A stretch of 64,000 bases of DNA from a virus (lineage: Duplodnaviria > Heunggongvirae > Uroviricota > Caudoviricetes), in the IMG/VR virus record IMGVR_UViG_3300027125_000001. One strand, given 5' to 3'. Made by a program: the position numbers and the translations under genes. The notes beneath the pieces were generated by a model. It made no database searches and was not told where the DNA came from. It saw only the letters and a program-made list of their open reading frames with translations. This document shows, one piece after another, positions 25,722 through 47,811 of the stretch. How positions within the stretch are numbered: the first letter of the stretch is position 1; each line of letters begins with the position of its first letter.

Positions 25722-27929
25722 TTATTCGATTTCCATAATTTCTTCGTCAACTGAAAGTTCTTCCACTGTCTTCCACCCATCCTTGGTCAGGAATCTATGA
25801 TCTTTAGTCGCTTTGATAATATCACCATTTTCAAGCTCAATATCAAATACTTCGCTAGTGCCATTGTAATAAATTCTATTCGTCTCAACCGGCCCGTCTT
25901 TTGTTTCGAGTGTAATAGTTTTATCAGACTCATGCCAGCCTTTCATATCATGCATTTCAATATTCTTCCACGAAAACCCAAGTTGTTCGCAAATTTCATG
26001 GAAGTTCATAGGTTTGCCATCAACAAAGACTTTGGTATCCCATTTTAGGCACTTTTCGCACGGCATCTGTGAGGAGACCGTCATGTTTCTCATGCCGTCA
26101 CGACGAATATTTGACATCAGGGCATCCCAGTCCATTGAAGGCTTTCTGGTAATAAATTCATCCACATCCTTCTTGTATAGATCAAGCTTGGAATATCCTT
26201 GAGCGTATTTGGATTTAGACCAGTCAGGCGCTGGTCCCTTTTCTTTGGCAAGCAACCAAGATGCCTCCATTAGGTAATATTGCTGGCGTTCCATGAACTC
26301 ATCGATAGCATTAGGTGCTTCTGGTGAATCATGATTCAAGCCTTGTGTCGCTAACCATCCTGCTAGATTAGTAATGCCAATACCAAGCGATCTTTTATTC
26401 TTAGTGAATCTTTCGGCAGCAGGTGCAAAGTATAATTGGCGATCTACCATATCATCTAGCATGCGTACGGCCTGATGGCATACCTCACGGTGTTCATTTG
26501 CCGATCTGATATTGAGCATATTGACCGCCGCAAGCAAACACGTACCAATTTCACCATTAGGATCATCTAGGGATTGACATGGTTTCGTTGGTTGTAGGAT
26601 TTCTACACAAAGATTCGTCATGTTGACACGCTCAGTCCATGGAGAAAAATCATTAGCAAGATCGATATTAAGAATATAAATTCTGTTCGTTTCGATTCTT
26701 TCTTTGATCAAAGAATCAAAGATATCATCTGCAGGAATAGACTTTTTAAATTTAATCTCTGGGTTTGCTTCTGCCTTGAGATAAAGCTCGTCAAATTCAG
26801 GCATACCAAACGAATCAAATAATTCAGGAACCTCATGATTCGAGAATAGAGTAATGTTTCCGCCTTCATTCCAGCGTTCATAGAAGATTTTAGAAATACC
26901 AATTACATAGTCAAGATGTCTTACACGATTATATTCGGTACCACCAACATTTCGCAATTGGAGAATAGATTCAATCTCCCAATGGAAAATAGGTGCATTG
27001 GCTGTACCGGCACCACGTCTAGCACCACCTTGTTGCTGAGACTTGATCGCATCTTGGAACACTTTGAGATATGGAATAACCCCACCATGAATAGTCTCGC
27101 CATTCTTAACAGGAGACCCAACACCACGAATCTTGCCGAAATCTAATCCAATGCCATATCCATAACTGGTAGCCCTCGCCATAATATGCGCAGACGAAAA
27201 GATCGAGTCTGCCGTATCATCGACTTGAATCAAGCAACAAGATGCACCTGTCTTAACGGGGGTTCTCCATCTTGTAAGCATTGGTGTTGGTATATTCAAA
27301 CGACGCTCAGATACATCGTCATAGAATTGGCGGATATATTGAATCCGTTTCTTGGATTCATAATTTGCATAGTGAGACATACCAATACACATGAACGCAA
27401 ATTGAGGAGTCTCATATACTTTATGATTGACTCGATCTTGAACTAAGCCAGTGCGCACGAGATGCTTCATGCCAGCAAAATCGAACATAGTCTCGTCTCT
27501 TTCGTGGTCAATATAACTGCCAATCTTATTGATCTCTTCTTCACTGAACTTGTTAATTAGCTCATCTGTATAGACTCCGAGGTCTACACATTTCTTGATG
27601 TGGTCATATAGTCTTGGTGGTGTATTACCACCCCACACTTCTTTACGAAGGCCATATACCAAAAGCCGTGCGGCTACAATTGAATAATTTGGATTTTCTA
27701 AAGAAATAAGATCTTCTGCTGACTTAACCAATGAGTCTTGAATTTCCGCTGAGGTGATGCCATCGTAGAAGTTAATCTTGGCATTCATAAGAATATCAAT
27801 TGCTGATGCTCCTGCTACGCCTTTTGTTGCATGGTAGACCATTCTATTGGCCTTTTCTGCATCGAAAATTTCTGTATCTCCTGTCCGTTTTTTGACTAAA
27901 ATGTCTTTCATGTAATGTTTATCGAGCAT
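25722..27929 (-). CDS. nrdA: ribonucleotide reductase alpha subunit, N-terminal fragment (ATP-cone plus catalytic barrel) fused to an N-terminal split-intein segment
   Basis: ATP-cone VKKRTGDTEIFDAEK; active-site TNLCVEI; extein ends ...RNMTVSSQMPCEK (E. coli ...RNSTLSALMPSET); then CLKWDTKVFVDGK (intein block A) and TKDHRFLT (block B); stop after ~105 aa of intein. Confidence 0.8.
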   Translation of the reverse strand: MLDKHYMKDILVKKRTGDTEIFDAEKANRMVYHATKGVAGASAIDILMNAKINFYDGITSAEIQDSLVKSAEDLISLENPNYSIVAARLLVYGLRKEVWGGNTPPRLYDHIKKCVDLGVYTDELINKFSEEEINKIGSYIDHERDETMFDFAGMKHLVRTGLVQDRVNHKVYETPQFAFMCIGMSHYANYESKKRIQYIRQFYDDVSERRLNIPTPMLTRWRTPVKTGASCCLIQVDDTADSIFSSAHIMARATSYGYGIGLDFGKIRGVGSPVKNGETIHGGVIPYLKVFQDAIKSQQQGGARRGAGTANAPIFHWEIESILQLRNVGGTEYNRVRHLDYVIGISKIFYERWNEGGNITLFSNHEVPELFDSFGMPEFDELYLKAEANPEIKFKKSIPADDIFDSLIKERIETNRIYILNIDLANDFSPWTERVNMTNLCVEILQPTKPCQSLDDPNGEIGTCLLAAVNMLNIRSANEHREVCHQAVRMLDDMVDRQLYFAPAAERFTKNKRSLGIGITNLAGWLATQGLNHDSPEAPNAIDEFMERQQYYLMEASWLLAKEKGPAPDWSKSKYAQGYSKLDLYKKDVDEFITRKPSMDWDALMSNIRRDGMRNMTVSSQMPCEKCLKWDTKVFVDGKPMNFHEICEQLGFSWKNIEMHDMKGWHESDKTITLETKDGPVETNRIYYNGTSEVFDIELENGDIIKATKDHRFLTKDGWKTVEELSVDEEIMEIE

Positions 27930-33396: not shown

Positions 33397-33445
33397 GTAA
33401 AATACTTATGCCACAAATAGAAGGATATAAGTGTATGAAGTAAAA

Positions 33446-33522
33446 TGGTGGCTATAACAGGACTCGAACCTGCAAAACTTGCATCCTCAATGCAATACGT
33501 TTACCAATTACGTCATATAGCC
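33446..33522 (-). tRNA. tRNA, anticodon GAG (Leu-type) on a class I (short variable arm) body
   Basis: Hand-folded cloverleaf: acceptor GGCTATA/TATAGCC, D-arm ACGT-AATTGGTAA-ACGT, anticodon loop TTGAGGA, T-arm GCAGG-TTCGAGT-CCTGT, A73, encoded CCA. Confidence 0.6.
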
Positions 33523-33528
33523 ATGAAA

Positions 33529-33609
33529 TGGTAGGAGCGACAGGATTCGAACCTGTGATGATTGCCAGTGTGTAAAACTGGTGCGTTCGGCCGCTACGCT
33601 AACACTCCC
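33529..33609 (-). tRNA. tRNA-Val (UAC)
   Basis: Anticodon stem CCAGT/ACTGG, loop TTTACAC; T-arm ACAGG-TTCGAAT-CCTGT; G1-U72; CCA encoded. Confidence 0.6.
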
Positions 33610-33616
33610 ATAAAAA

Positions 33617-33691
33617 GTACCCGCAGAGGGATTCGAACCCCCAACCTCTTGATCCTAAGTCAAGTGCCTCTACCGATTGGGCTATGCGGGC
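33617..33691 (-). tRNA. tRNA, anticodon UAG (Leu-type) on a class I body
   Basis: Anticodon stem CTTGA/TCAAG, loop CTTAGGA; T-loop TTCGAAT; 5-nt variable region; 3' end encodes only A73-C74. Confidence 0.6.
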
Positions 33692-33919
33692 ATATGTAAA
33701 TTGTCGAGACCTGATCCATCGTGTGCACTCGAACACACCTCCCGCACCGATTAACTGCGGTGTTCAACCTATAAACTTCGAAATGGGGGTCTCAGTTAGT
33801 CTTTAGTATCTTTCGAACGATACCATTAACTATTCGCGAATTGGTTCCCTGGGATGGAATTGCACCATCTTCGTTCGCTTCACAGGCGAAGACATTAACT
33901 AAATATGCTACACAGGGCA

Positions 33920-33996
33920 TGGTAGCCACGATGGGACTCGAACCCATAGAAAACAGTTTTTGAGACCGTCACGTTTACCAATTACATCACGTGGCT
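33920..33996 (-). tRNA. tRNA, anticodon CAA (Leu-type) on a class I body
   Basis: Clean cloverleaf: D-arm ATGT-AATTGGTAA-ACGT, anticodon stem ACGGT/ACTGT, loop CTCAAAA, T-arm ATGGG-TTCGAGT-CCCAT, A73 CCA; 77 nt. Confidence 0.65.
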
Positions 33997-34006
33997 ATAT
34001 GGAAAA

Positions 34007-34081
34007 TGGTACCCAGTAGAGGAATCGAACCTCTATTCGCGGTTTAGAAGACCGCTGTCCTATCCGTTGAACGAACTGGGC
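34007..34081 (-). tRNA. tRNA-Arg (UCU)
   Basis: Anticodon stem GCGGT/ACCGC, loop CTTCTAA; T-arm AGAGG-TTCGATT-CCTCT; CCA encoded. Confidence 0.65.
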
Positions 34082-34084
34082 ATA

Positions 34085-34159
34085 TGGTGGGCAGTAGAGG
34101 AATCGAACCCCTGTCTCAACGTCCGTAGCGTTGCGTACTATCCGTTATACGAACCACCC
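34085..34159 (-). tRNA. tRNA-Arg (ACG)
   Basis: Anticodon stem CAACG/CGTTG, loop CTACGGA; T-loop TTCGATT; CCA encoded. Confidence 0.65.
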
Positions 34160-34231
34160 AAATTAACGAGGCCGTCTCTCCGGCTGTCACGCACTTTACC
34201 AGGTGGCGTTCGCCTATTCAGATCAGTATAA

Positions 34232-34720
34232 TCAGAACTTAAACCCAACACCTGCTCGAATTGCAACGACGCCATCCTTGGCATCATTCTCTACAAGGAA
34301 ATTGTAGGTTGCATCTGCAAACAGATTGAGGGTATTAGTAAGACTATAACTTAGACCGCCACCGGTTCGTACGGTCCATTGATCTGTATCGAATTCATAA
34401 GCACCGCCCGCCAAGCCATATACAGAAAGCTTCTCTCCTACGGGGACGTAATAGAGAAGATTACCACCTACGGTATAAAGGTCATCTGCTACACCAACAG
34501 TAAGTTCTGCTTTCAGATCGCCTACAACTGGAGCTTCAAGACTCAAACCTCCACCGACTGTTTCATCACCATTGTCAAGGACCACAGTTGTGAATGCCTT
34601 TGAAACCCATCCTGTGGATCCAACTTCTGGTGTAGCAGGGGTTGGAGGTGTTACAGGAGAGCCTGCAAATGCCATTTGTGTTGCGAGTGCCATTACTAGT
34701 GATAGTAGTTTTGTTTTCAT
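34232..34720 (-). CDS. outer-membrane beta-barrel protein (Ail/Lom/OmpX-like, ~8 strands) with signal peptide
   Basis: N-terminal MKTKLLSLVMALATQMAFA signal; alternating amphipathic strands; C-terminal ...AGVGFKF (terminal Phe as in OMP beta-signals); 162 aa. Confidence 0.55.
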   Translation of the reverse strand: MKTKLLSLVMALATQMAFAGSPVTPPTPATPEVGSTGWVSKAFTTVVLDNGDETVGGGLSLEAPVVGDLKAELTVGVADDLYTVGGNLLYYVPVGEKLSVYGLAGGAYEFDTDQWTVRTGGGLSYSLTNTLNLFADATYNFLVENDAKDGVVAIRAGVGFKF

Positions 34721-34819
34721 AATTTGATTTTGTTGAAGATGTTATCTTCGTTTATATTATACTTTGTGGTGTGTGTTAAATCAACATCTTATTGTTTGTT
34801 TTTTAAAAATCAAAAGAAA

Positions 34820-35164
34820 TTAATGCCTCTTTCTTTTCATCATAACTGCTACCCCCGCTGCTGTCATCAGGACTCCTGGGTTCGTTGGTTCGGGTGCGCT
34901 AATATGTTGCCCATAGCAATCCCATTGATTTCCATTCCGCACACAAATACCATCAGGCCCGTCAGAACCTAATGTATTTAATCGAAAAGAATTTTGCCCA
35001 TTAACTCCCTGCACTAAAAGGAACCCGATGCTTAAAATTAGTGCCATGTTGAATTTGCTTTTACACCAAATATAGAATTTAGTAGGAGCTACCATCAAAG
35101 AAGTGCGTTGGGGCTCTTCTTGTTTAGATTGATTGTTTGTAGTGGTTGTATGTATAGTGTGCAT
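34820..35164 (-). CDS. hypothetical protein
   Basis: 114-aa ORF. Confidence 0.3.
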   Translation of the reverse strand: MHTIHTTTTNNQSKQEEPQRTSLMVAPTKFYIWCKSKFNMALILSIGFLLVQGVNGQNSFRLNTLGSDGPDGICVRNGNQWDCYGQHISAPEPTNPGVLMTAAGVAVMMKRKRH

Positions 35165-35341
35165 GTTTTAAAATTGGAGGATGGCTTGAGAATCGCACTC
35201 AACAACAAACGTTTTGCAGACGTAGCCCTTCACTAGCCGGGTCGCCATCCAAATTGTGCGGTTCTCTCCCGCAGTCACTAGTTGAACTGATGTTGGATAT
35301 CCTCGACATGCGTCCGTCTAGTCGTCCATGCCAAATTTAAA

Positions 35342-35863
35342 TTAGTAGCTCAATACGTATCTGATAGTCACCCTCTCACCAGGAATCTCGAAGCTTGAGA
35401 CGTGTTCTGGAGGATCTCCATCTTCGCCTTCCAATTCGATGTCATCTGTACCGTTATAACCTTCAAGGTCATCATACAAGTCAGAGATAGCTGATTCGAT
35501 ATATGACGGAAGATAACGCGAATTGTCTTCTTCTGGATTGATGTATCTTCGCCCTCGTTTAATATATGCATCATATTCAACTACAGTCTTGTCACCTGAA
35601 GGTCGTGTATATACACCCCCGGGAGTTAATGCTATTGCACCATTTCGATCATATCGTTTGAGAATGTTTTCAAATGCTTGAATTGCTTTGGATGTCTTCG
35701 CTGGTGCAGTTAGTTCTGCTTCGATAAAAATCGAATATTCTTCAGAGTCGGATGCATTTGATGCGATTTGATCTGCGTACGCTTCACAGATGAGAGATTG
35801 GTCGTTAGTGGGCATAAGAGTATTTAAGGTTAAGTAAGTTGATGTTCTGCAAGTTTGGTACAA
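35342..35863 (-). CDS. hypothetical protein
   Basis: 173-aa ORF. Confidence 0.4.
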   Translation of the reverse strand: MYQTCRTSTYLTLNTLMPTNDQSLICEAYADQIASNASDSEEYSIFIEAELTAPAKTSKAIQAFENILKRYDRNGAIALTPGGVYTRPSGDKTVVEYDAYIKRGRRYINPEEDNSRYLPSYIESAISDLYDDLEGYNGTDDIELEGEDGDPPEHVSSFEIPGERVTIRYVLSY

Positions 35864-36126
35864 AAATCCTTGATTGCTTTGTTATATAGTTCCCTGAATG
35901 TATCTTCTCCAATATCTCCTTCAACAAGATAATCGATATGATGTACTATATCTGCAGCAGTATCTAATATAATCATTGCTACTTCAAACTTATCTAAAAT
36001 ATCAGTAGGATACTTCCGAGCCTGCCTGAATTCATTTGGAACTTCATTGCTATTAATAAGGGACATGATTTCCCTCGAAATGTCAGTCAATCGAAATTGA
36101 TTGTAATCAAAATGCCCTCCACTCAT
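35830..36126 (-). CDS. hypothetical protein
   Basis: 98-aa ORF. Confidence 0.35.
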   Translation of the reverse strand: MSGGHFDYNQFRLTDISREIMSLINSNEVPNEFRQARKYPTDILDKFEVAMIILDTAADIVHHIDYLVEGDIGEDTFRELYNKAIKDFCTKLAEHQLT

Positions 36127-36293
36127 ATTTTAGAAATCAATGATTGCATCGAGTGCGATAACCAATGCTTTGATAATCAATGCAAAGTACAATATAACTA
36201 AAAATCCAATGCTTGTGAAATAAATCAATTTTGGTATTGTAGTGATAATTGAGTCTATATCCATTATGTTGATTTGGTTGATTTGGTTGAATG

Positions 36294-36369
36294 TGGTGCG
36301 GTAGACAGGACTCGAACCTGCAACATTCTGAGTGGAAGTCAGACGCCCTACCAATTGAGCTACTACCGC
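36294..36369 (-). tRNA. tRNA-Gly (UCC)
   Basis: Acceptor GCGGTAG/CTACCGC, anticodon stem TCTGA/TCAGA, loop CTTCCAC, T-arm GCAGG-TTCGAGT-CCTGT, CCA encoded. Confidence 0.7.
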
Positions 36370-36393
36370 GTAAACAATTATACAACGGGGCTG

Positions 36394-36786
36394 TTAGCCT
36401 ATCAAGTCTTTTGTTGATGCTCTTGCGTAAAATGTGAACGTAATCGGAATTAGTTTCCATGTGTCGAGTACTTTTATAATCGGTCTCGTTTCACAATATC
36501 CGTCCCACCCCTCGACTACTTCAAATTCATCAGTTTCTTCCATGTCATATTCTTTCTTGCGAAGAATGAAAGAACCCGATTCTTCGTCATAAGATATTGC
36601 TTTGTTGTATTCTTCCAGAAACCACAGATCAGCATCAACATACAGAGTGTTTGTGCCTTTAAAAAATTTAAGAAGGTTTTGTTTGAATCTACACTCCCGA
36701 ACATCAGTACAGTCAGGATGCTTGTATTTTACTATAAACCTTGGATCTGATAATAGTTTATGGAAATGATTAAAAGATATATTCAT
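36394..36786 (-). CDS. hypothetical protein
   Basis: 130-aa ORF directly upstream (same strand) of the ligase gene. Confidence 0.4.
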   Translation of the reverse strand: MNISFNHFHKLLSDPRFIVKYKHPDCTDVRECRFKQNLLKFFKGTNTLYVDADLWFLEEYNKAISYDEESGSFILRKKEYDMEETDEFEVVEGWDGYCETRPIIKVLDTWKLIPITFTFYARASTKDLIG

Positions 36787-36788
36787 AC

Positions 36789-37925
36789 TTAGAATCCTTC
36801 ATATCTTACGATTTTCATTTTACCAAATCTAGGAATCCCCTGTGCAGTCTTTCCTTGGTATTTTACTGTGGCTAGCATCCCTTTGACTTTTTCGCGGTCA
36901 TTAAATAAGCCACGTGCATATTCTTCGTTGCCAATAACTCCAGTAGAAAAAGCTCTACCGTCTTCAAGAGCCAATACTGCTTCTGTGGCTAGTCCGGTGC
37001 GATTACCTTGACCTTCTTTGATTTCGACAATATTGAATTCTTCGTCTTGGAATTGTTTGAGTTTCAGAAGTCCTTTCGATCTTTTATTCTCATAGATAGA
37101 TGTAGTATCACGAATCATGATACCTTCATATCCATCTTCCACACACTCACTTTCATACTCCGCAATAGCATCGCTGCCATTTACGAACAATGTAGTAACC
37201 ATGTTTATATGCTCATTATTACAAAGCCGTAATTGCTTTGTAACCAATTGCCAATTTCTTTCGTCGAAAGTTAGTTGTCGGTTATTTAGATCAACAAGAT
37301 CATAAACATGATATTGAATATCTTTGCATTCCGCAGTGTGTTCAATTTGACGAACTAACCCCGAAATCTTTTCAAACGGAATGGTATGATTGTAAAGCTC
37401 ACCATCTAGAATAAAAGATTGATTTTCTTTGAATAAATCTTCAAGAGCATTTTCAATATGGGTGCATGAAGTGATCTGTTTGCCCTTTCGACTTTGGAGA
37501 TATACTTTACCATCTTTAAGATACGCAATGCATCTATGTCCGTCTAGTTTGGGCTGAAGAGCCAATGGTGTACCAGGTGCTAGAGGGTGCTGATCCCATT
37601 TATGAGCAAGCATCGGTTCAAAGAAATTCGCACCAGATGATTCCAATGTCTCGCTGAATCCGGCGTCCTTTTTCTTGCGATAGATAGATTCAGCCTTTTT
37701 CAGAGCTTGTTCTTCTGCCGTAGTTGCGTTTGCCTTACCAACATTCTTTGCGAAACAAATAGTCCATTGCGAAGTAGTCAGCTTGCCTCCTACTTGCCCT
37801 TCAATCGTTCGATACTTGTCACCTTCTACTTCAATGCTCCACTGAAGAGGTGCGCCTTTGGTACTGTATTTGTAAAGTGTTTGCATTGGATTTAATATGT
37901 TGAAATTGAATTGCGAGGACTCCAT
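36789..37925 (-). CDS. ATP-dependent DNA ligase
   Basis: Nucleotidyltransferase motif I KLDGHRC, 378 aa, OB-like C-terminal half. Confidence 0.65.
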   Translation of the reverse strand: MESSQFNFNILNPMQTLYKYSTKGAPLQWSIEVEGDKYRTIEGQVGGKLTTSQWTICFAKNVGKANATTAEEQALKKAESIYRKKKDAGFSETLESSGANFFEPMLAHKWDQHPLAPGTPLALQPKLDGHRCIAYLKDGKVYLQSRKGKQITSCTHIENALEDLFKENQSFILDGELYNHTIPFEKISGLVRQIEHTAECKDIQYHVYDLVDLNNRQLTFDERNWQLVTKQLRLCNNEHINMVTTLFVNGSDAIAEYESECVEDGYEGIMIRDTTSIYENKRSKGLLKLKQFQDEEFNIVEIKEGQGNRTGLATEAVLALEDGRAFSTGVIGNEEYARGLFNDREKVKGMLATVKYQGKTAQGIPRFGKMKIVRYEGF

Positions 37926-38119
37926 TCGTTTAAATCTACTATTTCATACCAATCACATGGCATATCTCCAATAGTATAACCACACCTACCGTAGTTATTT
38001 TCTTCCATTGTTTCAACCATATTGAGAGCCTCTTCGTATGAATCATACGAATCAACCCAATTGCTTGTACCCGCACCAGGATAATAGTCGTGGCCTGCTA
38101 TCAAAAGATATCTTTTCAT
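37892..38119 (-). CDS. hypothetical small protein
   Basis: 75-aa ORF. Confidence 0.35.
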   Translation of the reverse strand: MKRYLLIAGHDYYPGAGTSNWVDSYDSYEEALNMVETMEENNYGRCGYTIGDMPCDWYEIVDLNEWSPRNSISTY

Positions 38120-38141
38120 TTTTAGTATTGGTTATTGAAAT

Positions 38142-38216
38142 TGGTTGTCCCGACTGGAATCGAACCAGCTACCTATTCCTTATCAGGGAAGTGCTCTACC
38201 GATGAGCTACGAGACA
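38142..38216 (-). tRNA. tRNA-Ile (GAU)
   Basis: D-arm GCTC-ATCGGTA-GAGC, anticodon loop CTGATAA, T-loop TTCGATT, U1-A72 acceptor, CCA encoded. Confidence 0.6.
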
Positions 38217-38222
38217 ATAAAG

Positions 38223-38317
38223 TGGCGGAGTGCACTGGACTCGAACCAGATGGCTTTTTAGCAAAACCACAATCTGTTTAGCAAACAGTTCCAACGCGCC
38301 TGTTTGGTTTACACTCC
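38223..38317 (-). tRNA. tRNA-Ser (GCU), class II with long variable arm
   Basis: 95 nt; anticodon stem CTGT/ACAG, loop TTGCTAA; variable-arm hairpin GGTTTT-GCTA-AAAAGCC; T-arm CTGG-TTCGAGT-CCAG; G73 CCA. Confidence 0.55.
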
Positions 38318-38327
38318 GTATTGAAAT

Positions 38328-38402
38328 TGGTATCGCCGAGGGGAATCGAACCCCCATTTGAGGAATGAAAATCCTCCGTCCTAACCATTAGACGACGGCG
38401 AC
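38328..38402 (-). tRNA. tRNA-Glu (UUC)
   Basis: Anticodon stem GAGGA/TCCTC, loop TTTTCAT; T-arm GGGGG-TTCGATT-CCCCT; G1-U72; CCA encoded. Confidence 0.65.
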
Positions 38403-38407
38403 ATAAG

Positions 38408-38483
38408 TGGTGGGTTGACTCGGATTCGAACCGAGATGATCTGTTCTTCAGACAGACGCATGAACCATCATTGCTATCAACCC
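38408..38483 (-). tRNA. tRNA-Phe (GAA)
   Basis: Acceptor GGGTTGA/TCAACCC, anticodon stem TCTGT/ACAGA, loop CTGAAGA, T-loop TTCGAAT, CCA encoded. Confidence 0.7.
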
Positions 38484-38764
38484 GAAATTGGTTTGTCTTT
38501 CATGATTTCTATTAGACCTTCATCGATAAGCTTATTGAATATCTCTTTGAATTGTTTTTCAAATTCTATTTGATCTTTCTCGGCAATATAATCAAGGAAC
38601 ATGTTGTATACAGAAGCACATGCGCACGCAACGTAATAAGTATTAAAATTTAATCCCGAGTCAGGTGCTTGAAATCTAATTAACGGTCTATTCCCTTGTT
38701 TGCCATTTTTATCTGTAACTTTGACATTTGCAATGTAGCAGAATGGTTCTATTAGTTGTTCCAT
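38477..38764 (-). CDS. hypothetical protein
   Basis: 95-aa ORF. Confidence 0.35.
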   Translation of the reverse strand: MEQLIEPFCYIANVKVTDKNGKQGNRPLIRFQAPDSGLNFNTYYVACACASVYNMFLDYIAEKDQIEFEKQFKEIFNKLIDEGLIEIMKDKPISG

Positions 38765-39013
38765 TTAATTGAACAATGGCGAGGTTTCTACTTTTTCAAA
38801 TTTAGTGATGTACTCATCCAGTACACTAATATATTCTCGAGCACTTTGAATGTCCCGTTGCAATTCTTCAATTCTGGTTTTATCCTCTGTGCCACATGCC
38901 ATCCATTCACTATTTTCAATGCGAAGAAGATATTCTGACTTGATGTGAATAAGTTCTTTACGAATGATGTAGTTGACTAAGTCGTCTGCACATTGGCGTT
39001 GAGTTTTCTTCAT
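38765..39013 (-). CDS. hypothetical protein
   Basis: 82-aa ORF. Confidence 0.35.
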   Translation of the reverse strand: MKKTQRQCADDLVNYIIRKELIHIKSEYLLRIENSEWMACGTEDKTRIEELQRDIQSAREYISVLDEYITKFEKVETSPLFN

Positions 39014-39077
39014 GTTATATATTCACATCGGGTGTTGTTATTAGCAACTGCTTTGTGTTTTGATCGCAGTTATAAAT

Positions 39078-39152
39078 TGGCTCCTCAGGAAGGTTACGCT
39101 CCTTCATAATCCCGATTAACAGTCGGGTGCATTGCTAGTCTGCCACTGAGGA
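39078..39152 (-). tRNA. tRNA-Asn (GUU), atypical T-loop
   Basis: Anticodon stem CCCGA/TCGGG, loop CTGTTAA; T-arm GAAGG-AGCGTAA-CCTTC (non-canonical loop); U1-A72; CCA encoded. Confidence 0.5.
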
Positions 39153-39221
39153 ATATTAAAAATTAAATTAAATTATTACTTATATACTATAGCAATATAT
39201 CAGAGCGTTGACTGTATAAAT

Positions 39222-39296
39222 TGGTGCCTCCGATGGGACTCGAACCCATAACCTTCAGATTAAAAGTCTGTTATTCTACCATTGAATTACAGAGGC
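39222..39296 (-). tRNA. tRNA-Lys (UUU)
   Basis: Acceptor GCCTCTG/CGGAGGC, anticodon loop CTTTTAA, T-arm ATGGG-TTCGAGT-CCCAT, CCA encoded. Confidence 0.65.
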
Positions 39297-39305
39297 ATGT
39301 GCAGG

Positions 39306-39629
39306 TTAAACTTCTATTGAAATTTGATTGTGTGTAGGCCAGAATCTTTTTTTGTTATCTACCTGAATGTCGCGATCTACTTTAATGTAAGATCTACCCC
39401 AGCCTCTCCATATATGCCCTTGATTCATTTTCCTAGCATGTACTTTGAATGGTTTTTTTGGTGTCATCTTTCTGCTGATGGCGTAATGATAACACCCGAT
39501 TTGAATTCCAGGATGGCCGTTTAGTTGATCGGCGTTGTCTAAACAATATGCATATAAAGAGTAATATGCTTCACCAGCATTTACATCAATCCACTCATAT
39601 GTGGGTTTGTTGCGATCTTTTTTAGTCAT
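39306..39629 (-). CDS. hypothetical protein inside the tRNA array
   Basis: Listed ORF 39306..39872 runs across two tRNA genes; trimmed to internal Met (MTKKDRNKPTYEW...), 107 aa. Confidence 0.35.
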   Translation of the reverse strand: MTKKDRNKPTYEWIDVNAGEAYYSLYAYCLDNADQLNGHPGIQIGCYHYAISRKMTPKKPFKVHARKMNQGHIWRGWGRSYIKVDRDIQVDNKKRFWPTHNQISIEV

Positions 39630-39647
39630 TTTTGTTTTCGTTGAAAT

Positions 39648-39742
39648 TGGTACTCCTGGCCGGATTCGAACCGACAACCGCGCCCTAATCTGGGGCATAC
39701 GAAAGGTATAAGCTTTCCGCTCTACCAATTGAGCTACAGGAG
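39648..39742 (-). tRNA. atypical class II tRNA, anticodon UAU, with long hairpin variable arm
   Basis: 95 nt; D-arm GCTC-AATTGGTA-GAGC; anticodon stem GAAAG/CTTTC, loop CTTATAC (U33, A37); variable hairpin TGCCC-CAGATTA-GGGCG; T-arm GTCGG-TTCGAAT-CCGGC; G1-U72, A73 CCA. Confidence 0.5.
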
Positions 39743-39757
39743 CACATATGTTGAAAT

Positions 39758-39832
39758 TGGTTGCGGGAGATGGACTTGCACCACCGACCTCCTGGTTATG
39801 AGCCAGTTGAGCTACTACTGCTCTATCCCGCA
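39758..39832 (-). tRNA. tRNA with anticodon CAU (Met, fMet or Ile-lysidine type)
   Basis: D-arm GAGC-AGTAGTA-GCTC, anticodon loop CTCATAA, T-arm GGTGG-TGCAAGT-CCATC (variant T-loop), U1-A72, CCA encoded. Confidence 0.6.
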
Positions 39833-39889
39833 ATGTGTAGTTAATATTAACACGTGGTTGTGTTGTTATCAACTTGTTTATTTATAAAT

Positions 39890-39965
39890 TGGTCTGGATG
39901 GTGGGATTCGAACCCACGACCTTTTGATCCCAAATCAAATGTTCTACCAAGCTGAACTACATCCA
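39890..39965 (-). tRNA. tRNA-Pro (UGG)
   Basis: C1-G72 acceptor (CTGGATG/CATCCAG) typical of bacterial tRNA-Pro, anticodon loop TTTGGGA, T-loop TTCGAAT, CCA encoded. Confidence 0.7.
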
Positions 39966-40661
39966 GATAAAATTATTTTTGCAATACTCATTAATTACTC
40001 TCATGTCTGGCCACGTGATCGTTTGCGACTTCCACGAAATTGGCCTGTACCATATGAATTCAATGTTGTTATTGACACAATCACTTAACGAGAAATTCAA
40101 TATATTTCTTATTTCTTCTTTAGTTAGATTTGTTTTATTTGAGTAATTTTCTATTAAAAATTTTTCATAGTACCTAACATCATAGTTTGGCTGCAATGCG
40201 AAAAATTTAAGCATCTCATCAATTTTCCCACCTATAATAATATCTAAAAAATAAGTGGTAGATGTCTCTATGCCAGCGATAGCTGTTAGCTTTTCGCGAT
40301 ACGACTTCGCCAGTATCTCTAAATATCTATCATAATCTTGACATAGTATATCAAAACGAGTCCTTAATACATATTCATATCCGTTTTCTTTAAGATACTT
40401 CAACCCATTATGTACAGTAATAAACTGTGGTTTATATATTTCTTGTTGTTTTACACTATTGTAAATGATTTTAAAATTGTTGTTTTTTAATTTGTCGACA
40501 TATTCAGGTGATTCATTTTCCCATATTGATGCTATTTTATTTGTCTGATTTTTGGTCTGTTCAATTAGAACATCAATGGTGTCACCGTGTACGTTTCCTG
40601 TGAATAAAATTGCAGTGTTTGGCATATAAATTAGTACCTCCGGAAGGACTTGCACCTTCAC
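39957..40661 (-). CDS. hypothetical protein inside the tRNA array
   Basis: 234-aa ORF between tRNA-Pro and the next tRNA. Confidence 0.4.
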   Translation of the reverse strand: MKVQVLPEVLIYMPNTAILFTGNVHGDTIDVLIEQTKNQTNKIASIWENESPEYVDKLKNNNFKIIYNSVKQQEIYKPQFITVHNGLKYLKENGYEYVLRTRFDILCQDYDRYLEILAKSYREKLTAIAGIETSTTYFLDIIIGGKIDEMLKFFALQPNYDVRYYEKFLIENYSNKTNLTKEEIRNILNFSLSDCVNNNIEFIWYRPISWKSQTITWPDMRVINEYCKNNFIWM

Positions 40662-40706
40662 CGTGTTGCTTATGAAACAACCATTCTACTTTTGAATTAC
40701 AGAGGC
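40634..40706 (-). tRNA. tRNA with anticodon CAU (second copy; Met/fMet/Ile2 type)
   Basis: 5' 15 nt identical to the tRNA-Lys gene (GCCTCTGTAATTCAA); anticodon stem GTTGT/GCAAC, loop TTCATAA; T-arm GAAGG-TGCAAGT-CCTTC; G1-U72; only A73-C74 encoded. Confidence 0.55.
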
Positions 40707-40709
40707 GTG

Positions 40710-40785
40710 TGGGGCTCAAAGTGGGAATCGAACCCACATCCCTTCCATACCAAGGAAATACACTCACCATTGTGCTATTCGAGCC
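40710..40785 (-). tRNA. tRNA-Thr (GGU)
   Basis: Anticodon loop TTGGTAT, T-arm GTGGG-TTCGATT-CCCAC, C73 CCA encoded. Confidence 0.6.
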
Positions 40786-40794
40786 AAAAGAAAT

Positions 40795-40868
40795 TGGAAG
40801 TCCCTGATGGAATTGAACCATCATAGTCGGAATCAAAATCCGATGCATTACCATTATGCTAAAGGACC
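40795..40868 (-). tRNA. tRNA-Gln (UUG)
   Basis: Anticodon stem TCGGA/TCCGA, loop TTTTGAT, T-arm GATGG-TTCAATT-CCATC, U73 CCA. Confidence 0.6.
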
Positions 40869-40876
40869 ATATAAAA

Positions 40877-40969
40877 TGGCGGGTAGCTGAGGACTTGCAC
40901 CCCAACCTAGGTTCGCTAGATCAATCCGCTTTCGAGACGGTTGCAGTACGCTTGTCTGCTTAACTACCC
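40877..40969 (-). tRNA. tRNA-Ser (CGA), class II
   Basis: 93 nt; anticodon loop CTCGAAA; variable hairpin CTAG-CGAAC-CTAG; variant T-loop TGCAAGT; G73 CCA; one of three near-identical paralogs. Confidence 0.55.
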
Positions 40970-40971
40970 AT

Positions 40972-41048
40972 TGGTGCGGCTGACAGGATTCGAACCTGCG
41001 ACAATATCCTTGGCAAGGATGCGCTCTACCAAATTGAGCTACAACCGC
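40972..41048 (-). tRNA. tRNA-Gly (GCC)
   Basis: D-arm GCTC-AATTTGGTA-GAGC, anticodon loop TTGCCAA, T-arm GCAGG-TTCGAAT-CCTGT, CCA encoded. Confidence 0.7.
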
Positions 41049-41054
41049 ATAAGA

Positions 41055-41128
41055 TGGAGGCCTATCCCAGAATTGAGCTGGGGACTATTCATTACGAGTA
41101 AATTGTTTTACCACTAAACTAATAGGCC
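41055..41128 (-). tRNA. tRNA-Thr (CGU)
   Basis: Acceptor GGCCTAT/ATAGGCC, anticodon stem ATTTA/TGAAT, loop CTCGTAA, T-arm CCCAG-CTCAATT-CTGGG, CCA encoded. Confidence 0.55.
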
Positions 41129-41133
41129 GAAAT

Positions 41134-41209
41134 TGGCACGTGCTGTCAGAATCGAACTGACCCAGTCGGATTTGGAGTCCAACTCGCCTGCCTTGGGACA
41201 TTAGCACGT
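41134..41209 (-). tRNA. tRNA-Trp (CCA)
   Basis: Anticodon stem TTGGA/TCCGA, loop CTCCAAA, T-arm GTCAG-TTCGATT-CTGAC, G73 CCA. Confidence 0.6.
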
Positions 41210-41218
41210 AAAAAGAAA

Positions 41219-41292
41219 TGGAGGTCCTGTCCGGAGTCGAACCGGAATCAACGCATTACAAGTGCGTCGTTTTACCATTAAACTAAAAGACC
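41219..41292 (-). tRNA. tRNA-Thr (UGU)
   Basis: Anticodon stem ACGCA/TGCGT, loop CTTGTAA, T-arm TCCGG-TTCGACT-CCGGA, CCA encoded. Confidence 0.6.
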
Positions 41293-41436
41293 GAAATGTG
41301 CTCCACTAAGAGTTAGCTATTTTCCAGTGAGCACTGTTATCATCTACAAACATGCACAAGCCCATGTTTGACCAGAGCCATATAAGGGATAGCTTGTGAG
41401 GATTTCCTCATAAAGTGTGGATAGTTGATGCTTAAT

Positions 41437-41529
41437 TGGCGGGTAACTGAGGACTTGCACCCCAACCTAGGATCACTAGATCAATCCGCTTTCAAGGCGG
41501 TTACAGCGCGCTTGTCTGTTTAGCTACCC
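41437..41529 (-). tRNA. tRNA-Ser (UGA), class II
   Basis: Paralog of 40877..40969 differing mainly in the anticodon hairpin (loop CTTGAAA). Confidence 0.55.
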
Positions 41530-41535
41530 ATAAAT

Positions 41536-41611
41536 TGGCGGTGCTGACGGGATTCGAACCCGCATCATCTATCGTGACAGGATAGCAATTTGCCGATTAA
41601 AATACAACACC
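41536..41611 (-). tRNA. tRNA-Asp (GUC)
   Basis: Anticodon stem CTATC/GATAG, loop CTGTCAC, T-arm GCGGG-TTCGAAT-CCCGT, G73 CCA. Confidence 0.65.
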
Positions 41612-41617
41612 AGAAAG

Positions 41618-41710
41618 TGGCGGATGAATGAGGACTTGCACCCCAACCTAGGATCACTAGATCAATCTGTCTTCCAAACAGATGCAGCACGCTTGTCTGC
41701 TTAATCATCC
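41618..41710 (-). tRNA. tRNA-Ser (GGA), class II
   Basis: Paralog of the two other Ser genes; anticodon stem ATCTGT/ACAGAT, loop TTGGAAG. Confidence 0.55.
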
Positions 41711-41714
41711 AAAT

Positions 41715-41791
41715 TGGTGGAGATGGTGGGAATCGAACCCACAACAGTCTGATTGCAAATCAGTCTCGCTAGCCTTAGTACATGCACCCCC
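41715..41791 (-). tRNA. tRNA-Ala (UGC)
   Basis: Acceptor GGGGGTG/CATCTCC gives the G3-U70 Ala identity pair; anticodon loop TTTGCAA; T-arm GTGGG-TTCGATT-CCCAC; A73 CCA. Confidence 0.65.
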
Positions 41792-41800
41792 ATTTGAAAT

Positions 41801-41889
41801 TGGTGGGTCCTCAAGGAGTTGAACCTTCTGCCGAACCGCCTGACATAACACGGCAATGGATTTACAGTCCACCGTCAGGAAAAGAACCC
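41801..41889 (-). tRNA. tRNA-Tyr (GUA), class II
   Basis: 89 nt; anticodon stem GTGGA/TCCAT, loop CTGTAAA; long variable arm; T-loop TTCAACT; A73 CCA. Confidence 0.55.
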
Positions 41890-42287
41890 TAAAAAAAGAT
41901 ATGTTATTCAGTGTACTACACTAGGAAACATCAAGCATTTGCTTTACTGGACCCTTGATATCAAGACATTTGATATCTGTAAAAATACTTCATACACTAT
42001 CAGCTTTTAACTGATGTCACTTTCTGTGATCGCTTGGGCGCTTCAGGTGCTCCCTTGTCGTGAACCTCGTTGTTTATTTTAACTTTTTTATTATAACTGC
42101 GGCGTGTTACACCTGCAAGTCTTTTTTAAAGTTTTTTTCAACTCGCGGATGATCGCTGAGCATCGAGGAGACGCCACTTGCAACCACCCGCAGCCATTCG
42201 ATTGGCTGTTGGAGTTGTATAAAAGAAATTAATCTCTGGCGTCTGTGTATTCACGTTAAAATTATTTATATTCGAGATTTACTATTT

Positions 42288-44082: not shown

Positions 44083-44097
44083 GATTTAATATATTAC

Positions 44098-44622
44098 GTG
44101 CGGGTGTTGGAAGCCGCAACTGATTATATCAAACACCAAATCACAAAATGTAGTTGTCACCAGCAACACCCGATAGTATTTTATTGCATGCCGAAAAAAG
44201 CAAAACCATTCGTGTTGGACATTGACAAAGTCAAAGCCGATCACCAAAAAGGTAAATTCCCATACAAGATTCCATGTTCTTCATGCAACAAACTCTGCGG
44301 GAACACCTCAATGGAAATTTTTAATACTAGGATCAAATCGTACGGGAGCATCGATAAACTGTACGCCAACTATGTTTGTACAGACTGTCGAAAAAATAAG
44401 CAAATCGCCCCAATTAAAGAAAATTCAACACCAGCGATCGTATCACAAGCAAACAACAACAACCCAATTCCTATAGAGAGCCTGGGGAGGATGCCTGATG
44501 GATCAATCAATTACTGGTTTCGACATCCATTGTACCGACTGCCAGCGGTTCAACGAAAAATGGTTGAAACGTACGATGGGTATGTTACCTTTGTGAAAAC
44601 CGGCGTCGAAGACGATAATTAA
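44098..44622 (+). CDS. hypothetical Cys-rich (zinc-ribbon-like) protein
   Basis: CSSCNKLC...CTDCRKNK pairs; 174 aa. Confidence 0.4.
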   Translation: MRVLEAATDYIKHQITKCSCHQQHPIVFYCMPKKAKPFVLDIDKVKADHQKGKFPYKIPCSSCNKLCGNTSMEIFNTRIKSYGSIDKLYANYVCTDCRKNKQIAPIKENSTPAIVSQANNNNPIPIESLGRMPDGSINYWFRHPLYRLPAVQRKMVETYDGYVTFVKTGVEDDN

Positions 44623-44633
44623 TATATTAAGCA

Positions 44634-45005
44634 ATGAAAAAGCTATCTCAAAAGGAAAGAATGGAGATTACTCTCAGAATGTATGGGGACAAACACAAAG
44701 AATTTCGCAAATCAGATCCAACACCGAAAGAAGTAAGAGCGGCAAACATTAAAGTAGTTGTCGCACAACCCGAGTGGCAAAAAATTAGACATAGCTTTAT
44801 CGGCACATGGAATAATACGCCAGAAGAAAATATTAGGACGATGCGACGGTATGTAGGTAATATGAAAGATCCCATCAAGGTTCGCCAAGTTCTTAATTAT
44901 GTTACGTCGTCAGGATTTCGCATTGGCATTATTGATCATCCTGACATTACTAAATTCAGAGAAGAGGTAAGGGATGCTTGGAAAGAACTAAACAACAACG
45001 AATAA
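44634..45005 (+). CDS. hypothetical protein
   Basis: 123-aa ORF. Confidence 0.4.
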   Translation: MKKLSQKERMEITLRMYGDKHKEFRKSDPTPKEVRAANIKVVVAQPEWQKIRHSFIGTWNNTPEENIRTMRRYVGNMKDPIKVRQVLNYVTSSGFRIGIIDHPDITKFREEVRDAWKELNNNE

Positions 45006-45124
45006 TGAGATGAATATAACACACTGGCACAACTTAATCCCACCGCCGATACTCCCACCATTTATAATTTTGCTTATCTTGGTGGTCTACAGCTGGTACT
45101 TTTACATGATCAATCTGCGATAAT

Positions 45125-45592
45125 ATGAACAAAATATCAAACGAATTGGCAACCATCAATGAGACCAATGAACATATCAATCAAGTCCGAAATGTTCTTT
45201 ATGGTTTGATAAATCAATTAAGTGGCAGAGCATTAGATCACGACAAATCAAAACTATGTTCACCAGAGTTAGAGGCATTTGCTGCAACACAAGGCGAGTT
45301 GAAAGAAGTCGAATATGGCACCCCAGAATACGACCAACTGAAAGGCAAAGTAAAACTGGCGATTGATCACCATTACAAGAACAATAGGCATCACCCAGAA
45401 CACTTCGCTGGTGGTGTAAATGATATGAATTTGGTGGATATTATTGAAATGTTCGCTGACTGGGTTGCAGCAACTAAGCGCACAAAAAATGGGAACATTT
45501 TAACAAGCATTGAGAAAAATACCATTCGCTTTAAAATGGATGAACAGCTTACGCAAATCTTTTTGAATTCGGCTAAAGATTTTTCAGAGTAA
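45125..45592 (+). CDS. hypothetical protein (His-rich HHxxNNRHHPEH segment)
   Basis: 155-aa ORF. Confidence 0.4.
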   Translation: MNKISNELATINETNEHINQVRNVLYGLINQLSGRALDHDKSKLCSPELEAFAATQGELKEVEYGTPEYDQLKGKVKLAIDHHYKNNRHHPEHFAGGVNDMNLVDIIEMFADWVAATKRTKNGNILTSIEKNTIRFKMDEQLTQIFLNSAKDFSE

Positions 45593-45630
45593 CCACTTGA
45601 TTACATACACACCGCCCGCGATATTCAATT

Positions 45631-45864
45631 ATGATTGAATTCGCAATTAAAGTCACGACGCCAGGAGGTGCTGTAATCGTTTCTCGGCTTGAGAAAATTG
45701 AACCAGAAAAATATGCCCAATTTAGATTCGATCTTCGCAAGGCGATTGGTGAAGGCAATTTTTCAGTAATCGATGAAGATGGTGACATGGTGATTCTCCC
45801 AGAAAAAATCATGAAGGAAAGCATCGTGCAAATCGTCCAAACAAACGAAGTTAAATATTCATGA
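45631..45864 (+). CDS. hypothetical protein
   Basis: 77-aa ORF. Confidence 0.35.
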   Translation: MIEFAIKVTTPGGAVIVSRLEKIEPEKYAQFRFDLRKAIGEGNFSVIDEDGDMVILPEKIMKESIVQIVQTNEVKYS

Positions 45865-46474: not shown

Positions 46475-46508
46475 TATACACAGCACCACACTTTACATTA
46501 AAACACAT

Positions 46509-46730: not shown

Positions 46731-46749
46731 CACATACGGAAGTAAGCAA

Positions 46750-47774: not shown

Positions 47775-47811
47775 TGAGTGATTAAAATGTCACCACACTG
47801 TATAATATTGT

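Follow-up and report, generated by a model that had tools for sequence, protein, structure and literature searches.

The window analysed here, a 64,000-nucleotide stretch of phage DNA with a G+C content of about 39% (IMG/VR record IMGVR_UViG_3300027125_000001), encodes a 96-nucleotide (nt) tRNA with the anticodon UAU, whose variable region carries a second stem-loop presenting the triplet GAU. We consider, with good confidence, that this molecule is an isoleucine tRNA for AUA codons. It belongs to a widespread and apparently undescribed family of AUA-reading tRNA-Ile in which a second arm imitates the isoleucine anticodon arm; a search of the literature outside subscription journals returned no description of an arm-bearing tRNA-Ile(UAU) family. 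The same window encodes four tRNAs that combine leucine anticodons with a short variable region, and on balance we favor a picture in which two phage-typical remodelings occur together, both in line with what bacterial synthetases recognize: short leucine acceptors, and a UAU isoleucine tRNA whose extra arm would serve as a signal to isoleucyl-tRNA synthetase (IleRS).

The UAU tRNA, its two arms, and the ordinary isoleucine tRNA with which the extra arm was compared are located as follows:

39648-39743, minus strand: tRNA(UAU), 96 nt, called by ARAGORN; Rfam score 58.2 bits, with a 21-nt insertion in the variable region

39701-39717, minus strand: decoding arm of tRNA(UAU); stem GAAAG/CUUUC, loop CUUAUAC, anticodon UAU, canonical U33 and A37

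39681-39697, minus strand: extra arm of tRNA(UAU); stem UGCCC/GGGCG, loop CAGAUUA, with GAU at 39688-39690

38142-38216, minus strand: ordinary class I tRNA-Ile(GAU), called by ARAGORN; loop CUGAUAA

An earlier note on this DNA had correctly recognized a long tRNA with anticodon UAU and A73, but the extent that it gave (39648-39742, 95 nt) is one base short at the 5′ end. The note was also right that no other tRNA of the window apart from Ser and Tyr has a long arm: among the 31 tRNAs inventoried, such arms are confined to the four tRNA-Ser, tRNA-Tyr(GUA) and the UAU tRNA. The body of the latter has a 7-base-pair (bp) acceptor stem, a 5-bp T stem, a terminal CCA and a D arm of class I (GCUC/AAUUGGUA/GAGC). 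Its 25-nt variable region, with a 5-bp stem and a 7-nt loop, has the long arm expected of class II, and is followed by a normal 5-nt variable loop (CGGUU); the D arm has neither the 3-bp stem nor the enlarged loop with nucleotides 20a/20b that are characteristic of class II. We read the molecule as a class I body rather than as a Leu-like class II tRNA.

The identity set for isoleucine in bacteria comprises A73, C4-G69, U12-A23, C29-G41, G/L34, A35, U36, t6A37 and A38 (PMC9976931, Table 1). All three acceptor and core determinants (A73, C4-G69, U12-A23) are present in the window tRNA. Its decoding arm, which has U34, C38 and A29-U41, matches the set only at A35, U36 and A37, while the extra arm copies C29-G41, C32, G34, A35, U36 and A38 of a tRNA-Ile(GAU) anticodon arm, with A33 and U37 as departures. 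Because the decoding arm lacks G34, A38 and C29-G41, and the extra arm supplies exactly these three, we infer that the extra arm is an IleRS identity element, a conclusion to which we would give slightly better than an even chance.

Relatives of this tRNA occur in phages, in viral contigs and in bacterial tRNA arrays. A BLAST search of deposited phages with tRNA(UAU) found three homologues:

Synechococcus phage SynMITS9220M01: annotated as tRNA-Ile, 95 nt

Synechococcus phage DSL-LC02: unannotated

Acinetobacter phage vB_AbaS_qsb1: annotated as tRNA-Ile

In the 3-kb stretch of qsb1 that was examined, only Arg(UCU) and Ile(UAU) are annotated, both of which read typically rare codons. A scan of IMG/VR, using a pattern restricted to the 3′ strand of the D stem and the UAU loop, recovered at least 116 contigs, and ARAGORN called at least 118 tRNA(UAU) in the matches listed, the deposited phage loci and the window, 114 of the 118 being 90-96 nt long. 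About 40 more were found in bacterial assemblies when one genome per species was scanned (185,579 species), mostly within arrays of 20-33 tRNAs, in Acidobacteriota (Blastocatellia, Pyrinomonadaceae), Obscuribacterales, Sphingopyxis and others. These arrays also hold short tRNA-Leu beside long tRNA-Tyr and tRNA-Ser; short tRNA-Leu and arm-bearing tRNA(UAU) travel together in mobile tRNA sets. Phages and arrays together provided 98 unique sequences of the family.

Across 38 distinct sequences, pairing in the cloverleaf with its extra helix amounts to 96%, a figure that falls to 40-46% if the partners are slid out of register, and RNAalifold recovers the same five helices unaided. The acceptor and T stems of the family have 7 and 5 bp, with covariation in all seven acceptor pairs and in four of the five T-stem pairs; the D arm is of class I (GCUC/AAU(U)GGUA/GAGC), with its four stem pairs formed in 38 of 38 sequences. 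U12-A23 is equally constant (38/38), A73 reaches at least 90%, and 21 of 38 have C4-G69. The extra arm, of up to 5 bp with a 7-nt loop, is preceded by a linker of 2-4 nt and followed by the normal 5-nt variable loop (CGGUU). Double-sided changes were seen in four of the five pairs of its helix, one of which is G-C in 18 sequences, A-U in 13, C-G in 4 and U-A in 2.

The loop of the extra arm is far more constrained at some positions than at others. Among 96 unique sequences, GAU occupies positions 34-36 in every one, accompanied by A33 in 94, A38 in 83 and C32 in 78, and position 37 varies, being A in only 20 and a non-purine in 72. The pair equivalent to 29-41, third from the loop, is C-G in 90 of the 96, while the pairs flanking it covary freely; decoding arms have C29-G41 in only 9 of 96. 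The anticodon-branch set for bacterial isoleucine identity is absent from the decoding arm and, A37 aside, is found in the extra arm when it is sought anywhere in the molecule. Ordinary tRNA-Ile(GAU) genes in the same loci have the loop CUGAUAA. A second IMG/VR scan, keyed on the extra arm and the T arm and blind to the anticodon, recovered 88 stretches; all 77 intact arm-bearing tRNAs that could be read in it have the anticodon UAU, and three further matches are truncated copies. The extra arm and the UAU anticodon are therefore linked.

Some members and neighbors of the family are irregular. In three loci (L207, L208 and L215), the truncated 3′ half of an arm-bearing tRNA lies directly after another tRNA with a CAGAUUA arm, a layout that testifies to arrays in which genes are duplicated in tandem and decay. 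A 93-nt gene in L148 (5639-5731) has the family body and an extra arm with the loop CAGAUCG, together with a degenerate first arm in which ARAGORN reads a four-base anticodon. Viral and array loci also contain long-arm tRNA-Thr(UGU) or tRNA-Lys(UUU/CUU) genes of 83-89 nt (L014 5948-6030, L021 2344-2428, L039 15-102, L115 6444-6531, L092 4399-4487 and L157 5391-5476); by eye, some of their D arms are of Leu or Ser type, and their arm loops display no anticodon mimicry. Two other accounts of the arms were rejected: pairing of GAU with the T loop, whose sequences vary without compensation (by eye), and an intron or splicing role for either arm, for which there is no bacterial mechanism and with which the conservation of both arms is at odds.

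The earlier note had proposed an analysis of CUN, UUR and AUA codons in phage genes, in which, as it turned out, leucine codons align as leucine and AUA as isoleucine. The test made use of a 2,490-amino-acid protein of the window with relatives at 60% and 38% identity, whose contigs (L198 and L199) also hold relatives of four neighboring open reading frames (ORFs); alignments were codon-aware and restricted to well-aligned columns, and AUA codons of the relatives were set aside to avoid circularity. The 140 aligned AUA codons of the window face isoleucine encoded by AUU/AUC at 46%, valine at 19% and leucine at 11%, the same distribution as that of AUU/AUC codons (chi-square p = 0.93), and one that differs from that of leucine codons, which face leucine at about 64% (p = 3e-35). 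AUA sites are under isoleucine-like constraint. AUA makes up 20% of isoleucine codons window-wide, 28% in the tail-fibre-like block (1-22300) and 13% in the last block (44090-64000), and accounts for 1 of 58 isoleucine codons in the large-subunit and 0 of 25 in the small-subunit gene of ribonucleotide reductase (RNR). This bias among gene blocks fits phage tRNAs serving late structural genes.

In most bacteria, AUA is decoded by tRNA-Ile2(CAU), which needs the lysidine supplied by TilS (PMC3575796). E. coli IleRS charges tRNA-Ile(UAU) poorly unless its W905 is replaced by Arg, and AUG codons on E. coli ribosomes are open to misreading by a UAU tRNA (PMC3575796). The phage decoding arm, ordinary in its UAU, U33 and A37, should read AUA, and with U34 it would need neither lysidine nor TilS; the same anticodon would lose the wobble-base determinant on which a typical bacterial IleRS depends. 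In the mechanism that we propose, the second arm, located in the variable region, where the ribosome tolerates long arms, would present C29-G41, C32, G34-A35-U36 and A38, and the host IleRS would read it as an identity signal. Access to the enzyme might be gained by flexible linkage of the arm, which is as long as the anticodon arm and would lie beside the decoding arm, or by a swap of the two arms through a change in which of them stacks on the D stem. Decoding by the second arm, or its modification as an anticodon loop, would be prevented by A33 and by the non-purine at position 37. We see an even chance that the arm is a transplanted identity module, and that the family is the first natural one in which anticodon-type determinants are separated from the decoding anticodon.

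Several known systems resemble this arrangement in part. The tRNA-Ile2(UAU) of Mycoplasma mobile (Taniguchi et al. 2013, PMC3575796) likewise reads AUA with an unmodified UAU anticodon, without lysidine or TilS; in M. mobile, however, the synthetase is adapted (Arg865) and the ribosome avoids misreading of AUG, whereas in the phage it is the tRNA itself that has acquired an arm, as expected for a mobile gene working with an unadapted host IleRS. The phage tRNA shares the UAU anticodon of the M. mobile type and departs from its class I shape. The tRNA-Ile2(CAU)/TilS system serves the same codon and the same amino acid, with IleRS identity in the anticodon loop, but depends on a host modification enzyme, and the unmodified tRNA is charged with methionine (PMC9976931), in contrast to the U34 and separate GAU arm of the phage tRNA. 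Nearest in principle are class II tRNA-Ser and SerRS, where identity resides in the variable arm; SerRS reads the length and orientation of that arm, whereas the phage arm appears to hold sequence determinants normally found in the anticodon arm. Finally, the allo-tRNA(UAU) of Acidobacteria and other bacteria (Mukai et al. 2017, PMC5389517) resemble the phage family in having a long arm and predominantly UAU anticodons, and in occurring in soil bacteria and phages. Allo-tRNAs have 8/4 or 9/3 acceptor/T stems and a tRNA-Sec-like D arm with a long stem and a tetraloop (PMC5389517), neither of which is seen in the UAU family, with its 7/5 arrangement, 4-bp D stem and D loop of 8-9 nt.

A number of points weigh against the proposed role of the extra arm. 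Its loop is no plain copy of an isoleucine anticodon loop, as the conservation of A33 equals that of GAU and A is seldom found at position 37; moreover, the loop ends could pair (U-G, U-A or G-C) in about 17% of sequences, and only 5 nt would then remain in the loop. In the tRNA-Ile(GAU) of the phage itself, the pair is U29-A41, which means that C29-G41 is not universal in isoleucine tRNAs. The family also includes tRNA(UAU) genes without the arm (4 of the 118, and one in contig L205), and two members (L044 and L092) have GGAC in the extra loop instead of AGAU, GAC being a valine anticodon; these two may represent drift, pseudogenes or a different identity. An arm in the variable region is not normally located at the place where IleRS contacts the anticodon, and the model requires a flexible arm beside the decoding arm or an arm swap. 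The window tRNA also has A73, A14, A15 and a U at position 48, which are part of the set recognized by leucyl-tRNA synthetase (LeuRS). The codon test reports constraint under host decoding and is blind to low-level misincorporation, a point that the nematode precedent discussed below bears out, and every statement made here about charging, for both types of tRNA, is deduced from sequence.

The extra arm might instead serve a partner other than IleRS, as protection from a nuclease or toxin, as a signal for processing or stability, or as a site for the enzyme that modifies U34, with IleRS accepting UAU directly or poorly. Phage tRNAs are believed to escape host defences directed at tRNAs, and the window also contains RNA ligase, DNA ligase and phosphoesterase genes; the strict conservation of A33, which a pure anticodon copy would not require, and the existence of arm-less members would suit such a role as well. 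Even so, it would leave unexplained the exact isoleucine triplet GAU with its C32/A38 flanks, the fixed C-G at 29-41 and the restriction of the arm to UAU tRNAs, and a family with members in cyanophages, in an Acinetobacter phage and in arrays of Acidobacteriota, Obscuribacterales, Sphingopyxis and others demands a partner that is universal, as IleRS is. We regard this explanation as unlikely, though not negligible.

A quite improbable alternative is that the UAU tRNA is a mistranslator, its long arm and A73 making it a substrate of LeuRS (or SerRS), with AUA partly translated as leucine or serine. A precedent is provided by the nematode nev-tRNA-Ile(UAU), a class II tRNA charged only with leucine (Hamashima et al. 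2012, PMC3333845), which has a long arm, UAU and A73 in common with the phage tRNA and in whose light the earlier note's idea that LeuRS might charge the UAU tRNA, with recoding of AUA, was a reasonable one. A73, A14, A15, G18G19 and the U just before the T stem are indeed part of the E. coli LeuRS set, and the window body without its arm is 76% identical to one short tRNA-Leu (in L022). The idea nevertheless finds no support in the analysis. Nev-tRNAs are derived from tRNA-Leu, have a Leu-like D arm and variable-arm tip, and are leucylated (PMC3333845), whereas the phage tRNA displays neither Leu descent nor these features, its D arm being of class I and its extra arm resembling an isoleucine anticodon arm. 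That D arm (4-bp stem, 8-nt loop, no 20a, no 13:22 mismatch) is unlike those of all short or long tRNA-Leu in the same loci, and both G73 and a Ser-type D arm are missing. The variable arm is not read by bacterial LeuRS (PMC9976931), the conserved features of the extra arm are determinants for isoleucine and not for leucine or serine, and AUA sites in the window behave as isoleucine sites. The resemblance of the body to tRNA-Leu is non-specific, as similarity to many other isotypes is equally high (65-72%), and overall body similarity was rejected as uninformative about isotype.

That the molecule is a two-headed decoder, in which either arm stacks as the anticodon arm, so that the UAU arm reads AUA and the GAU arm reads AUU/AUC, is hardly credible: the second arm has the exact size of an anticodon arm (5 bp, 7 nt) with a normal 5-nt variable loop after it, and the first joins the D arm via a normal position 26, but no normal decoding loop is compatible with A33 (94 of 96 sequences) or with a non-purine at position 37 (72 of 96), and several of the loci examined, including the window, encode a separate, ordinary tRNA-Ile(GAU).

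If the UAU tRNA is indeed an isoleucine tRNA with an arm that IleRS reads, mobile elements would be able to decode AUA as isoleucine in almost any bacterium, without TilS or an adapted IleRS, which would explain how mobile tRNA genes escape both lysidine dependence and the rejection of UAU by IleRS. Identity would have been uncoupled from decoding by the addition of a decoy anticodon arm, providing a natural template for orthogonal or recoded tRNAs, and a handle on how a class Ia synthetase searches for anticodon determinants. Three isolated, cultured phages carry the arm-bearing tRNA, making the hypothesis testable now.

The second remodeling concerns leucine. All leucine anticodons encoded by the phage in the window are carried by tRNAs of the short type:

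33446-33522, minus strand: tRNA-Leu(GAG), 77 nt, variable loop GUUUU (5 nt), A73, CCA; D arm ACGU/AAUUGGUAA/ACGU; Rfam 65.4 bits

33617-33691, minus strand: tRNA-Leu(UAG), 75 nt, variable loop AGGUU, A73, no encoded CCA; Rfam 66 bits

33920-33996, minus strand: tRNA-Leu(CAA), 77 nt, variable loop of 4-5 nt, A73, CCA; Rfam 57.9 bits

57387-57462, plus strand: tRNA-Leu(UAA), 76 nt, variable loop AGAGU, A73, CCA; Rfam 62.3 bits

The description of these four genes in the earlier note, as short tRNAs whose variable region measures about 5 nt, with A73, proved accurate: ARAGORN returned exactly the same coordinates and anticodons, and Rfam agrees. In the bracket structures given by ARAGORN, the variable loops measure 5, 5, 4 and 5 nt (GAG, UAG, CAA and UAA, respectively) and the discriminator is A73 in all four. 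The note had allowed that covariance models might place long arms in these genes; they do not, and the fold stands. With the Rfam tRNA model, the four score 58-66 bits (gathering score 29); the alignments of Leu(GAG) and Leu(UAG) have a short variable region without a long arm, and match lengths of 74 nt for Leu(CAA) and 73 nt for Leu(UAA), over 71 model positions, leave no long insertion. None has the variable region of more than 10 nt, forming a stem-loop, that defines canonical class II. Single-sequence minimum-free-energy folding missed the cloverleaf for several of the tRNAs considered here and gave weak z-scores, and was used as a sanity check only.

The Leu-type D arm (3-bp stem, 13:22 mismatch, loop AAUNGGYAG, nucleotide 20a) is complete in Leu(UAG), which has a 3-bp stem, a C13/A22 mismatch and the loop AAUCGGUAG, and in Leu(UAA), where it reads GUC/CAAUGGCAGA/GGC. 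Leu(GAG) and Leu(CAA), whose D arms are nearly identical, have the Leu-type loop AAUUGGUAA but on a 4-bp stem. A73, A14, A15, G18G19, a 20a nucleotide and U48 are present in all four.

Short tRNA-Leu are an ordinary phage type, already present in public annotation and of low novelty. BLAST searches of deposited phages with Leu(UAA) and Leu(UAG) each matched far more than a hundred records, and many of the features hit are annotated tRNA-Leu of only 69-78 nt. Four deposited records were re-analysed with ARAGORN:

Vibrio phage KVP40: tRNA-Leu-1 (CAA) and tRNA-Leu-2 (UAA), 77 nt each

Streptomyces phage TunaTartare: Leu(CAA), 75 nt

Ochrobactrum phage vB_OspM_OC: Leu(UAA), 78 nt

Rhizobium phage RHph_I1_18: Leu(UAA), 78 nt

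Their short tRNA-Leu align with the window genes over the full length, with the D arm UAGUCCAAUUGGCAGAGGCA, the 5-nt variable loop and A73 in common. Like those of the window, they are 74-78 nt long, with a variable loop of 4-5 nt, A73, a D arm of the form GYC-CAAUUGGCAGA-GRC, and the anticodons UAA, CAA or UAG; window Leu(UAA) is approximately 77-83% identical to the annotated short tRNA-Leu of the KVP40, Streptomyces, Rhizobium and Ochrobactrum phages. Nothing essential distinguishes the window genes from these, the 4-bp D stem of Leu(GAG) and Leu(CAA) being the one departure. The type also occurs, among the matches listed, in Myxococcus, Bacillus, Gordonia and Rhodococcus phages. These findings contradict the statement in the earlier note that class II comprises all known tRNA-Leu of bacteria and phages. 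Its alternative suggestion of an unusual tRNA-Leu architecture in this lineage is sound as a description, but the architecture is common in phages, viral contigs and bacterial arrays rather than special to this phage. A search of the literature outside subscription journals found no paper on short phage tRNA-Leu.

The frequency of the type was gauged in 123 loci, namely 116 viral contigs obtained for another purpose, from the UAU tRNA scan, and seven deposited phage loci. In these and the window, ARAGORN called 85 tRNA-Leu, of which 39 are 78 nt or shorter; in a set that also includes bacterial tRNA-array loci, 42 of 69 unique parsed tRNA-Leu (about 60%) have a short variable loop. All but two of the 42 combine a 3-bp D stem with a 13:22 mismatch, as in long tRNA-Leu; their D loops follow (C)AAUNGGYAGA, and the last base of the variable loop is U in nearly all those listed. 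A73 is found in 37 of the 42, the other five being listed with T or G, and four of these five, with T, result from the addition by ARAGORN of an acceptor-stem pair. Stems of short tRNA-Leu show compensatory changes across very distant phages. In contig L205, a 77-nt and an 86-nt Leu(CAA) are adjacent. A scan with the D-arm word of Leu(GAG) and Leu(CAA) yielded mostly non-tRNA matches.

The loss of the long arm is consistent with what LeuRS is known to recognize. In E. coli, its determinants are A73, A14, A15-U48, G18G19 and A20a (PMC9976931), and neither the anticodon nor the long arm of tRNA-Leu is crucial, armless variants remaining active (Giegé and Eriani, PMC9976931). Human mitochondrial tRNA-Leu, which has no long arm, is recognized via A73 and A14 (PMC9976931). 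On the E. coli identity set, the four short tRNAs are predicted to be genuine leucine acceptors, reading CUN and UUR as leucine; the long arm can be lost from phage tRNA-Leu because bacterial LeuRS reads neither the arm nor the anticodon, and it fits this picture that the tRNA-Ser and tRNA-Tyr of the same phage keep theirs, as SerRS and TyrRS use the arm. The tRNA-Leu(UUR) of human mitochondria and E. coli tRNA-Leu engineered to be armless are likewise leucine acceptors without a long arm, with identity conveyed by A73, A14 and tertiary contacts that link the D loop with the T loop (PMC9976931); these tRNAs are organellar or artificial, however, whereas the phage short tRNA-Leu are natural, and would function in a bacterial cytoplasm beside the class II tRNA-Leu of the host.

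It is very unlikely that the short tRNAs are not leucine acceptors at all, being either non-functional or class I tRNAs of another identity whose anticodons have changed. Leu(GAG) and Leu(CAA) do have a 4-bp D stem instead of the 3-bp stem of the Leu type, and leucine charging is here a prediction from the gene sequences. Against this, the LeuRS features listed above are present in 4/4 window genes, and the short type covers all leucine anticodons of this phage and is kept across very distant phages with compensatory stem changes. Each of the six leucine codons in the window faces leucine at 60-72% of aligned positions in relatives of 40-60% identity, behaving as a leucine codon should, and armless E. 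coli and human mitochondrial tRNA-Leu are leucylated (PMC9976931). A textbook generalization is thus corrected: tRNA-Leu of the bacterial world are not always class II, and phages and mobile tRNA arrays routinely carry armless forms, which fit the biochemistry of bacterial LeuRS and bear on tRNA annotation and isotype models.

The remaining tRNAs of the window complete the inventory. ARAGORN called 29 tRNA genes; with Asn(GUU) and Tyr(GUA), both of which it missed, the total is 31. The four tRNA-Ser are 93-95 nt long, and Tyr(GUA) scores below the Rfam tRNA cut-off. The other features referred to above are:

38223-38317, minus strand: tRNA-Ser(GCU), called by ARAGORN; true class II

40877-40969, 41437-41529 and 41618-41710: the three other tRNA-Ser, called by ARAGORN; class II

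41801-41889, minus strand: tRNA-Tyr(GUA), class II with a long arm; recognized from a weak match to the tRNA-Sec model and a reading by hand

39078-39152, minus strand: tRNA-Asn(GUU), T loop AGCGUAA

Several other tRNA genes deviate from the usual form. A tRNA-Trp (41134-41209, minus strand) scores only 25 bits, and a tRNA-Val(UAC) (33529-33609, minus strand) is 81 nt long with an 8-nt variable loop. A second CAU tRNA (40634-40706, minus strand) has the acceptor and D stems of tRNA-Lys(UUU) (39222-39296, minus strand), a D loop without GG, and the T loop UGCAAGU, which is that of the four tRNA-Ser; Met, Ile2 or another identity are candidates for it. CCA is encoded in nearly all of the 31 genes (window positions 33400-41900 and 57387-57480), with Leu(UAG) at 33617-33691 and the CAU tRNA at 40634-40706 as the only exceptions. 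The genes are preceded by ..(C/U)AU, and a conserved spacer, (A)UUU[C/A]A, comes after them; these flanking motifs resemble a signal, for processing or spacing, that the genes have in common.

The phage itself is new, without a close relative among 50,697 deposited phages: a megablast search of those records with the tRNA region gave no match, and blastn gave tRNA-sized matches only. A search for relatives based on the DNA ligase found one distant contig with an unrelated tRNA set, and an exhaustive protein search with ORF 14745-17360 found one true relative along with repeats of its C-terminal domain, and was not used. The structural ORFs of the window had no matches in PHROGs.

Besides very large tail-fibre-like proteins, the genes identified in the window encode an intein-containing RNR, thymidylate synthase, PhoH, and a DNA and an RNA ligase. 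Alongside the 31 tRNAs lie an ATP-dependent DNA ligase (36789-37925, minus strand), a metallophosphoesterase (49476-50180, plus strand) and an RNA ligase with a PHA02142 OB fold (53048-54229, plus strand), and these ligase and phosphoesterase genes may constitute a tRNA-repair kit against host anticodon nucleases. The ORF for the RNR large subunit (25722-27929, minus strand) ends in the N-terminal part of an intein (PF14890) and is followed by ORFs 24584-25672 and 24049-24642; the gene (24049-27929) appears to be interrupted by an intein or a homing endonuclease.

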